Below, piece after piece: positions 4,982 to 5,382 of a stretch of 24,564 nucleotides of DNA. Each line of letters starts with the position of its first letter. Position 1 is the first letter of the stretch. The DNA lies in NCBI GenBank assembly GCA_050049275.1, contig JASFWO010000001.1, positions 1 through 24,564 of the forward strand, read 5' to 3'. The translations under genes and the position numbers were made by a program. Origin of the DNA: Flavobacteriaceae bacterium (GTDB lineage: Bacteria > Bacteroidota > Bacteroidia > Flavobacteriales > Flavobacteriaceae). Below the pieces are notes generated by a model that did not search any database, was not told the DNA's origin, and saw nothing but the letters and a program-made list of their open reading frames with translations.

Positions 4982-5019
4982 CACAATTCTGATTTTGAAG
5001 TGAAATCAAAAACAAAGTA

Positions 5020-5049
5020 TTGGTCTTCCAAAACTTTATTTTATTTTTG
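5020..5049 (+). promoter_or_regulatory. Bacteroidota sigma-70 promoter of the tRNA-Gln locus
   Basis: TTG (5020-5022), a 19-nt spacer, then TATTTTTG (5042-5049), matching TTG-N19-TAnnTTTG. It ends 9 nt before the interrupted tRNA copy at 5059. Confidence 0.7.
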
Positions 5050-5058
5050 CACCTCCAA

Positions 5059-5141
5059 TGGCCTATGGTGTAAGCTACCTAAGACCAGCCAAACTGGCAA
5101 CACGCCTGCCTGCCAGCAGGCAGGTCTGATTCAAAATCAGA
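5059..5141 (+). pseudogene. Interrupted duplicate of the tRNA-Gln 5' half
   Basis: TGGCCTATGGTGTAA (5059-5073), CTGGCAACACG (5094-5104) and TCTGATT (5125-5131) together equal the first 33 nt of the intact tRNA. They are separated by two 20-nt insertions. No T-arm or 3' acceptor strand follows. Confidence 0.85.
5105..5124. repeat. 20-nt GC-rich palindrome (REP-like)
   Basis: CCTGCCTGC-CA-GCAGGCAGG: perfect 9-bp arms around a 2-nt centre. Confidence 0.8.
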
Positions 5142-5191
5142 CTAAAACTGGCAGAAGTGAATTTCGGCTTTAAACGAAGTAATTGATATTT

Positions 5192-5264
5192 TGGCCTATG
5201 GTGTAACTGGCAACACGTCTGATTTTGGTTCAGAAGAGTCTAGGTTCGATCCCTAGTAGGCCAA
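5192..5264 (+). tRNA. tRNA-Gln (anticodon TTG)
   Basis: Cloverleaf: acceptor TGGCCTA/TAGGCCA (U1-A72, typical of tRNA-Gln), D-arm, anticodon arm TCTGA-TTTTGGT-TCAGA, T-arm CTAGG-TTCGATC-CCTAG. CCA is not encoded. Confidence 0.97.
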
Positions 5265-5265
5265 C

Positions 5266-5294
5266 AAAAAATCCCGCAAACAGCGGGATTTTTT
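5266..5294. terminator. Bidirectional intrinsic terminator after tRNA-Gln
   Basis: AAAAAATCCCGC-AAACA-GCGGGATTTTTT, with A and T tracts on either side. It lies between the tRNA and the convergent desaturase gene. Confidence 0.85.
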
Positions 5295-5382
5295 CTTTGC
5301 ACACTGTTTTTTTTAAAAATCAAGATTTTTTAAAAAAAAATAAAACAAAAAAAGCGCTTATCAGGGAGTATAAATGAAAAAT

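Follow-up and report, generated by a model that had tools for sequence, protein, structure and literature searches.

A palindrome-split half-copy of tRNA-Gln in a flavobacterial genome, probably a nuclease-less form of a recurrent tRNA-restoring cassette

Introduction

Why should a tRNA gene be preceded by a broken copy of its own 5' half? This question is raised by the tRNA-Gln locus of a Flavobacteriaceae bacterium whose genus has small genomes of about 1.2-1.7 Mb. The window analysed here is the whole stretch of 24,564 nucleotides at the start of contig JASFWO010000001.1 (NCBI GenBank assembly GCA_050049275.1, forward strand). tRNA genes are classic landing sites of large integrative elements. 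A quarter of the tRNA genes in a streamlined marine flavobacterium bear tiny inserts of another kind, built around a GIY-YIG gene or its absence.

Layout of the tRNA-Gln locus

The sequence-only reading of this DNA had described the first 33 nt of the tRNA as recurring in three blocks split by two 20-nt insertions. Both the sequence and a repeat finder bear this out exactly: window positions 5059-5131 match tRNA-Gln positions 1-33 without mismatch, in blocks of 15, 11 and 7 nt with the two 20-nt inserts between them. The features of the locus are as follows.

5042..5050, + strand: -7 promoter box TATTTTTGc of the Bacteroidetes type, the single such box at the locus
5059..5073, + strand: block A, identical to tRNA-Gln positions 1-15 (5' acceptor strand and start of the D arm)
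5074..5093, + strand: insert i1, 20 nt, single-copy in the source assembly (G000)
5094..5104, + strand: block B, identical to tRNA-Gln positions 16-26
5105..5124, no strand assigned: H2, a 20-nt GC palindrome with stem CCTGCCTG/CAGGCAGG and centre CCAG
5125..5141, + strand: H3, an anticodon-arm-like hairpin of 17 nt, which includes block C (5125-5131, tRNA positions 27-33)
5148..5154, + strand: segment K, CTGGCAG, complementary to 5110-5116 within H2
5162..5179, + strand: H4, a 5-bp hairpin TTTCG/CGAAG with loop GCTTTAAA
5180..5191, + strand: A+T-rich spacer upstream of the working tRNA, with no promoter box
5192..5265, + strand: intact tRNA-Gln(TTG), called by ARAGORN and Rfam, the sole tRNA gene of the window
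5272..5296, + strand: terminator-like hairpin ATCCCGC/GCGGGAT followed by a T run, read by eye, its position kept in relatives

The insert between promoter and tRNA-Gln is 133 nt long in the window. For a 74-nt tRNA compared with 140 nt of flanking sequence, the chance expectation is about 7e-6 exact 15-mers, with the collinear 11-mer and 7-mer not yet counted. H3 has the same anticodon stem as the tRNA, and its loop reads TTCAAAA instead, the CAAAA of which complements UUUUG of the tRNA. Downstream of position 33, the left copy shows no trace of the tRNA 3' half. ARAGORN and Rfam RF00005 found no cloverleaf in the upstream half-copy and called only 5192-5265, and Rfam searches at gathering and permissive thresholds returned the tRNA only, with no family matching the leader. 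The 60 nt at 5132-5191 contain no ORF. A single copy of tRNA-Gln was detected in G000, as was the case in the 99%-complete genome G003. Insert i1, H3 and the spacer have no second copy anywhere in the G000 assembly and are therefore not dispersed repeats. The locus neighbours are a TMEM260-like glycosyltransferase (PF11028) and a fatty-acid hydroxylase (PF04116).

Logan contigs from two independent public studies reproduced the arrangement and revealed no misassembly. Contigs of run X1 tile 5004-5145 and 5116-5218 with zero differences, and one contig of run X4, from the separate study, covers 5044-5218 with two differences from the window.

Transcription and predicted folding of the leader

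Each of 20 loci has one TAnnTTTGC box, located 16-17 nt before the tRNA in alleles without the insert (empty alleles) or before the left copy in those with it (filled alleles). We take the TAnnTTTG box to be the promoter on the basis of the published Bacteroidetes consensus. The proposal that the best promoter precedes the broken copy agrees with the position of the sole -7 box (TAnnTTTG, 5042-5049). Because this sole promoter is upstream of the left copy, a leader of about 140 nt would have to be transcribed ahead of the working tRNA, and RNase P would have to remove it. For the terminator proposed after the intact gene, the hairpin and T run at 5272-5296 are evident by eye but absent from the terminator scan output; the sigma-70-type promoter/terminator scan of the locus returned nothing, as expected for Bacteroidota. 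In two metatranscriptome runs, both from other organisms, the contigs cover the tRNA alone.

The pseudo-acceptor of the left copy had been suggested to compete for the tRNA 3' strand, and the competing fold is indeed the predicted minimum-energy structure. In the minimum-energy folds predicted for whole precursors, the pseudo-acceptor pairs with the tRNA 3' strand in eight of nine long leaders, and these folds are predicted to lie 5-11 kcal/mol below the best native-cloverleaf fold. Short leaders whose left copy is mutated are predicted to fold natively.

Filled and empty alleles in the genus and in metagenomes

We compared 17 genus genomes that hold the tRNA-Gln locus. A homologous leader of 76-143 nt was present in six of them and in seven distinct metagenome variants, so the copy is not confined to the window genome. 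The other 11 genomes carry the empty allele, in which the promoter box lies 16-17 nt before the tRNA with nothing between. In empty alleles, the promoter-side and tRNA-side BLAST segments overlap by exactly the duplicated 15 nt. Long leaders, with 121-141 nt from promoter box to tRNA, are found in G000, G003 and G010. Short leaders of 76-77 nt are found in G013, G008 and G009; their left copy is decayed and their GC hairpin is the same, and the 76-nt form is without H3, K and H4. A metagenome scan with the H3 junction as bait yielded nine additional long leaders, seven of them distinct, and the flanks of some could not be aligned. The left copy plus H2 pattern, searched in 400 family genomes (302 genera), matched in G000 and G003 only.

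Patchiness was judged from a tree of the neighbouring gene and from pairwise identities. G003 is filled and G018 is empty, with flanks 98.6% (upstream) and 96.6% (downstream) identical; filled G010 and empty G007 have flanks 96.6% and 93.6% identical. G009 carries a short leader and L049 a long one between flanks that are 99.1% and 98.9% identical. Within run X4, the filled allele, a contig in which position 5073 is followed directly by block B and then tRNA sequence, and a short-type leader are all present. Clean gains or losses of the leader module are frequent, and the module does not show the decay of junk DNA. That near-identical species lack the leader argues against an essential role.

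The insert-free relatives bear on the idea that an interrupted gene was rescued by a re-supplied 5' half. They agree with it in that 76-143 nt together with a duplicated 5' part have been added between promoter and tRNA. Three further points went beyond the sequence-only reading: the module is recurrent and conserved, the second insertion is a palindrome found across phyla, and sister cassettes carry GIY-YIG genes.

Conservation and covariation of the leader

Long leaders share one order of modules: block A, optional i1, block B, H2, H3, a short linker, K, AAGTG, H4 and the A+T-rich spacer. Insert i1 occurs in 5 of 10 long leaders and is absent from G003 and L034; homologous inserts of 19-20 nt occupy the same place in four metagenome leaders. 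In the long leaders, K is a 7-nt segment complementary to the 5' strand and centre of H2. The H4 loop stays close to ACTTTAAA, and its stems vary by lineage with complementarity kept. The leader L034 comprises 1.5 units.

Between G000 and G003 the leader is 90.7% identical, compared to 83.1% and 75.6% for the flanks, and between G010 and L049 it is 83.1% identical, compared to 79.4% and 72.5%. The leader thus diverges more slowly than the sequence around it, which points to a module that is old or has been renewed horizontally. The perfect identity of the blocks had been taken to mean recent origin or selection. This is too simple, as the blocks are perfect where linkers and flanks have diverged by 10-25%. 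H3 does not vary among G000, G003 and G010, whose leaders came to light without the H3 bait; its invariance in the metagenome set is partly due to the use of H3 as search pattern.

Covariation was measured in a small sample of 10 sequences from about five lineages. In H4, changes on both sides were seen at 4 of 6 pairs despite slips of alignment register, and pairing is kept with at least five different stem sequences. In K, 92.6% of cells are paired, changes on both sides were seen at 2 of 7 pairs, and the segment co-varies with the H2 centre. Shifted controls gave pair counts far below those of H4 and K. The sole differences of the 175-nt X4 contig, 5115 (A to G) and 5149 (T to C), are pairing partners and form one K pair. 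Quasi-palindrome (templated) mutation can yield complementary changes in short inverted repeats without selection. This double change fits selection on structure, but also templated correction within the inverted repeat.

Sister cassettes with and without a GIY-YIG gene

The same layout of promoter, tRNA 5' copy split by a GC palindrome, cargo and intact tRNA was found elsewhere in the genus and in other phyla. Sister cassettes often hold a GIY-YIG nuclease gene of 80-90 aa where the window has about 50 nt, and a PF01541 search of the genus identified GIY-YIG frames of 80-92 aa adjoining tRNA genes. At tRNA-Leu(CAA) of G003, the promoter is followed by tRNA positions 1-24, 60 nt of GC hairpins, a decayed copy of positions 25-40, an 82-aa GIY-YIG ORF, 1 nt and the intact tRNA. 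At tRNA-Ala(GGC) of the same genome, a left copy interrupted twice like that of the window precedes a GIY-YIG frame with one stop and then the intact tRNA. In G014 and G003, tRNA-Arg(TCT) and a partial 3' copy flank a GIY-YIG gene of 80-84 aa; the corresponding gene of G006 is degenerate, and most relatives are empty at this site. The proteins of the sister cassettes match PF01541 with E values of 1.7e-17 and 4e-15. These putative nucleases consist of the GIY-YIG catalytic domain only, with no obvious DNA-binding domain.

A nuclease-less twin of the window locus exists at tRNA-Leu(TAG) of G003, with positions 1-24, a hairpin, positions 25-32, 36 nt and the intact tRNA. The first 14 letters of its hairpin and the tRNA position at which it sits are the same as in the G003 tRNA-Leu(CAA) cassette. 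Beyond the genus, three loci show the order of a tRNA 5' copy split by the exact 20-mer, a GIY-YIG ORF and an intact tRNA: L149 (WWE3, tRNA-Lys), L218 (tRNA-Gly) and L230 (tRNA-Leu).

Among published integrative elements at tRNA genes, duplication of the 5' half is rarer than the usual pattern, in line with the sequence-only reading; yet such duplication is common in this genus (5 of 31 tRNA genes in G003). Partial self-copies accompany 7-8 of the 31 tRNA genes of G003 and 4 of the 22 in G000 (Gln, Arg(TCT), Gly(TCC) and Ser(TGA)). The three-part layout is seen again and again, at Gln, Leu(TAG), Leu(CAA), Ala, Arg and Ile tRNA genes and in other phyla.

The tRNA-Gln locus itself yielded no nuclease gene in any of 13 distinct leaders (six from genus genomes and seven from metagenome contigs). 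BLAST of the 3' part of the leader against nuclease-bearing cassettes gave matches of 10-11 nt only and no GIY-YIG remnant in the roughly 50 nt after H3. A small GIY-YIG gene was not seen in the 57%-complete G000 assembly.

The GC palindrome across phyla

The H2 palindrome of the window has a CCAG centre, and its CCGG-centred form is letter-for-letter identical in many phyla. The CCGG-centred 20-mer occurs at 120 or more loci in reference genomes, cultured isolates included. The matches listed include Patescibacteria, Omnitrophota, Planctomycetota, Bacteroidota, Gamma- and Deltaproteobacteria, Bdellovibrionales, Thermodesulfovibrio and Chloroflexi. It is found in four contexts: within partial tRNA copies adjoining an intact tRNA, at the midpoint of inverted repeats of local extent, flanked by local direct repeats, and nested in itself. 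A GIY-YIG ORF lies within 150 nt at 6 of the 120 palindrome loci listed, and about 95% have no adjoining nuclease gene.

The H2 motif recurs in the genus, and a control with the reversed pattern gave almost no matches. G000 has one copy, G003 has five and the other genus genomes have 0-2; elsewhere in the genus the motif is found in MITE-like arrays and next to other tRNA genes. A covariance model of the leader, run against 150 family genera, matched mostly bare palindrome hairpins and plain tRNA-Gln genes. One of its matches, at tRNA-Ile of G180, has tRNA positions 1-9, then the palindrome and a piece resembling a D arm, with about 35 nt separating these from the intact tRNA. Literature searches by palindrome sequence and by topic found no description of the palindrome or of the cassette family.

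Proposed explanation

We propose, with a probability of roughly 0.6, that the window carries a homing-type, tRNA-restoring cassette in nuclease-less form, as a remnant or a non-autonomous copy, and that it is transcribed as a leader of about 140 nt. This reading builds on a layout that recurs at several tRNA genes and in several phyla, sometimes with and sometimes without the nuclease gene, and on the precise empty sites of close relatives. The cassette family is recurrent and apparently undescribed, and it occurs here in Bacteroidota with a conserved nuclease-less form.

A full cassette begins behind the resident promoter with the 5' part of the resident tRNA, up to about the anticodon loop, severed from the rest of the gene and split by at least one GC palindrome. 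The cargo is the 80-90 aa GIY-YIG nuclease gene, and at the end a second tRNA 5' copy is joined to the resident 3' part to give the working gene. By analogy with free-standing GIY-YIG genes such as T4 SegB, we infer that the nuclease cuts cassette-free tRNA genes and that the cassette is then copied in during repair, as happens in homing. A single crossover within the shared tRNA 5' part would be equivalent and could introduce a donor made of the 5' part, palindrome and cargo. The host would stay viable through the tRNA 5' part that the cassette carries, and the palindrome-broken copy would no longer be a nuclease target. Recombination between the direct repeats would delete the cassette cleanly, which would give a patchy distribution. 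At the tRNA-Gln locus, the nuclease gene may have been lost or may never have been there, as in a non-autonomous copy. The cassette may use the conserved hairpins as cis elements; alternatively, they may persist by allowing the tRNA to fold in spite of the competing pseudo-half.

Several points sit uneasily with this proposal. None of the 13 tRNA-Gln leaders has a nuclease gene, the window leader shows no detectable coding remnant, the incomplete G000 assembly revealed no small GIY-YIG gene, and most of the palindrome loci listed have no nuclease gene beside them. Filled alleles still hold an intact tRNA gene, and its escape from cutting is a weak point of homing. In addition, a dead scar would not be expected to be more conserved than its flanks and to keep its hairpins by compensatory change, which counts against a remnant. 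Tentatively, in a wider version of the proposal, the leader would not be a dead scar. The pseudo-half and the 20-nt palindrome could be the cis core of undescribed nuclease-driven, tRNA-restoring cassettes spanning many phyla, with the tRNA-Gln leader as a maintained form, either trans-mobilised or nuclease-immune, whose hairpins would serve tRNA maturation despite the competing half-tRNA.

The palindrome is identical in bacteria as far apart as the candidate phyla radiation and the Proteobacteria. If these are homing cassettes that mend the gene they break, they would represent a widespread and overlooked class of selfish DNA. They would further supply nucleases made of the catalytic domain alone, and would account for the 'split' and 'half' tRNA fragments that mislead annotation. 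In the nuclease-less leader there is a natural setting in which to test tRNA maturation from a precursor that holds a perfect acceptor-stem competitor.

Alternative explanations

Whatever its origin, the leader might now be a selected structured 5' leader RNA that tunes tRNA-Gln maturation or abundance. The pseudo-acceptor and D arm would compete for the tRNA 3' strand, CAAAA of H3 would pair with UUUUG of the anticodon loop, and H2/K and H4 would be alternative or insulating helices. The slow divergence of the leader in both pairs compared, the pairing kept in H4 and K, the compensatory pair that alone separates the near-identical X4 strain from the window, the predicted advantage of the pseudo-acceptor fold in most long leaders and the upstream position of the only promoter all argue for such a role. 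We nevertheless regard it as doubtful. Sister species with 96-99% identical flanks have no leader and another has only the 76-nt form, and the left copy with H2 is confined to this genus among the 400 family genomes. H2 is a generic palindrome that also occurs in unrelated contexts, the complementary changes could have arisen by quasi-palindrome mutation, and the H3 invariance in metagenomes owes something to the choice of bait. The leader matches no Rfam family, and the two metatranscriptome runs, from other organisms, cover only the tRNA. The slow evolution of the leader and the compensatory changes in its hairpins therefore give some weight to a structured-RNA role, or to a nuclease-immune allele.

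It is improbable that the two tRNA segments represent attL and attR, produced when a tyrosine or serine recombinase integrated an element whose own site carried the tRNA 5' part and which later shrank to a cis-mobilisable remnant of about 100 nt. Direct repeats of a tRNA segment do bound the insert and the empty sites are precise. Identity stops in the anticodon loop, the classical place of crossover, after which comes the second half of an anticodon-like stem; tandem units occur at tRNA-Arg of G003, and L034 has its 1.5 units. However, no recombinase gene was seen in or beside any insert. The inserts are tiny (76-330 nt), and the sole type of gene, where one is present, is the GIY-YIG nuclease. 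The palindromes sit inside the left repeat, for which a simple crossover does not account. Scans of viral contigs with the H3 junction and the tRNA-Gln 5' part gave matches in coding sequences or none, none of them in a non-coding context, and thus no phage attachment site was found.

We likewise give little credence to a purely local history, in which a tandem tRNA duplication was followed by decay of the upstream copy and independent insertion of REP-like hairpins, with no mobile cassette involved. A relative of the same order (L019) does have tandem tRNA-Gln genes, and the GC palindrome turns up in other settings as well: by itself between genes, within other palindromes and in MITE-like arrays. 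Such a history does not explain why the three-part layout, with its break near the anticodon loop and its palindrome at a domain junction, recurs at six kinds of tRNA gene and in other phyla, or why the copy begins exactly at tRNA position +1 in every case. The left copy has no 3'-half trace after position 33, and the leader is conserved rather than decaying. The idea of a RAYT/Y1-mobilised palindrome was dropped, as the Y1 transposase (PF01797) had no match in G000, G003, G014, G010 or G018.

An assembly artefact, suggested by the state of G000 (a MAG of 146 contigs, 57% complete), is ruled out by the agreement of the X1 and X4 contigs, one of which crosses the whole leader, and by the homologous leaders in G003, G010 and nine metagenome contigs.

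Comparison with known systems

Partial tRNA duplications made by integrases as attL/attR were reportedly treated by Williams in Nucleic Acids Res in 2002, for islands, prophages, ICEs and gene-less derivatives (cis-mobilisable elements). Our cassettes resemble them in the direct repeats of tRNA segments, the intact tRNA that is kept, the precise empty sites and the boundary in the anticodon loop. They differ in that the 5' rather than the 3' part is duplicated, no recombinase is present, the size is 76-330 nt and palindromes interrupt the displaced copy.

Homing-endonuclease ORFs of organelles can duplicate or replace the end of a host gene on insertion. Truncated extra gene copies have been described in mitochondrial DNA rich in homing-endonuclease ORFs (PMC4162613). 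In both systems a nuclease ORF inserts together with a partial copy of the gene it enters, so that function is kept; the organelle hosts are mitochondrial protein genes, however, and involve neither a conserved palindrome nor a tRNA.

Phage T4 SegB is encoded by a free-standing GIY-YIG homing endonuclease gene in a tRNA gene cluster, moves by intron-less homing, and has a recognition site that includes a conserved tRNA T-arm motif (PMC2330249). As with SegB-type genes, a small GIY-YIG gene lies among or inside tRNA genes, is present or absent between close relatives and is inherited with flanking tRNA sequence. Unlike SegB, the cassettes are in bacterial chromosomes and not in phages, and they sit inside the tRNA gene and rebuild it by means of the 5' (or 3') part that they carry. 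A near-invariant 20-nt palindrome marks their displaced copy, and their proteins are putative nucleases of 80-90 aa with the catalytic domain only. The copy in the window is without a nuclease gene.

T-boxes are tRNA-sensing riboswitch leaders and are not typical of Bacteroidota. The H3 loop of the leader shows CAA, the codon read by the cognate tRNA, as a T-box would. In contrast to a T-box, the window leader precedes the tRNA gene itself and not an aminoacyl-tRNA synthetase or amino-acid gene. No Rfam T-box match was found at E of 5 or below and no antiterminator element was found in the leader.

REP, BIME and REPIN sequences, MITEs, and the GC clusters and double-hairpin elements of fungal mitochondria are short, dispersed GC-rich palindromes. 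The palindrome described here is like them in being short and GC-rich in A+T-rich DNA, in nesting within itself and in its frequent location in transcribed spacers. It is unlike REP-type elements in its apparently low copy number per genome (0-5 in the genus), in the identity of the 20-mer across phyla, in the lack of RAYT/Y1 in the five genus genomes searched, and in its strong association with broken tRNA copies and GIY-YIG genes.

Units beside other tRNA genes

Outside the tRNA-Gln(TTG) locus, broken or partial tRNA copies were found beside several tRNA genes in the genome that contains the window (G000) and in others of its genus (G003, G014 and G018), and GC palindromes of the kind seen in the window (H2, 20 nt) recurred in repeat arrays.

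G000 contig C69:2587-2743 (locus L057:288-444), minus strand: unit 5' of tRNA-Arg(TCT)
G000 contig C42:4524-4640 (locus L058), also G014:C15: insert 3' of tRNA-Gly(TCC)
G018:C49 (L024) and G003:C26 (L269): copy 3' of tRNA-Pro(GGG)
G003:C25:4771-4845, G003 C52, G003 C58 and G005:C2 (loci L023 and L027-L029): MITE-like arrays

The tRNA-Arg(TCT) unit of G000 starts with tRNA positions 1-9 (one mismatch) and a 40-nt GC hairpin; positions 10-25 come next, then an anticodon-like arm and about 30 A-rich nucleotides. The arm keeps the UCU loop and its stem differs. Two such units lie in tandem in G003, and the unit is absent from most relatives.

Copies of tRNA 3' ends were also observed. At its end, the 108-nt insert at tRNA-Gly(TCC) carries a pair of small GC hairpins and a 23-nt duplicate of the 3' end of the tRNA, together with 4 nt of flank. 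Only G000 and G014 have this insert, at 97% identity, and the site is empty in the other relatives. Downstream of tRNA-Pro(GGG) in G018 and G003, the last 30 nt of the gene recur with 35 nt of flank; about 50 nt, the palindrome among them, interrupt the T-loop of this downstream copy. At tRNA-Ser(TGA) of G000 (contig C37:439-600, locus L059), the 3' end and about 30 nt of downstream flank are duplicated about 110 nt farther downstream; this duplicate is diverged and carries no GC palindrome.

Other settings of the palindrome

The MITE-like arrays of G003 and G005 consist of units of about 110 nt with the ends TGTCAC...ATGACA, and include a GC palindrome of the H2 kind together with other hairpins. 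No transposase was identified for these arrays.

At locus L106 of another genus of the family (G133:C3), a small GIY-YIG reading frame is present twice, once in truncated form, and the two copies flank a palindrome-bearing fragment. This fragment terminates like the 3' end of a tRNA or tmRNA (T arm plus ...CACCA).

Among the matches listed from the reference genomes (loci L113-L232), the exact 20-mer CCTGCCTGCCGGCAGGCAGG occurs in very distant phyla in few copies, and it is frequently centred within a local inverted repeat, placed between local direct repeats, or nested within itself.

Reverse complement of part of the H3 hairpin

The divergent TMEM260-like gene has in its 5' region a 12-nt stretch (window positions 4988-4999) that is the exact reverse complement of 5130-5141, the 3' part of the anticodon-arm-like hairpin H3. 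Two positions of the upstream stretch differ in G003 and G005, and the perfect match is thus specific to G000; it could reflect chance or a templated change.
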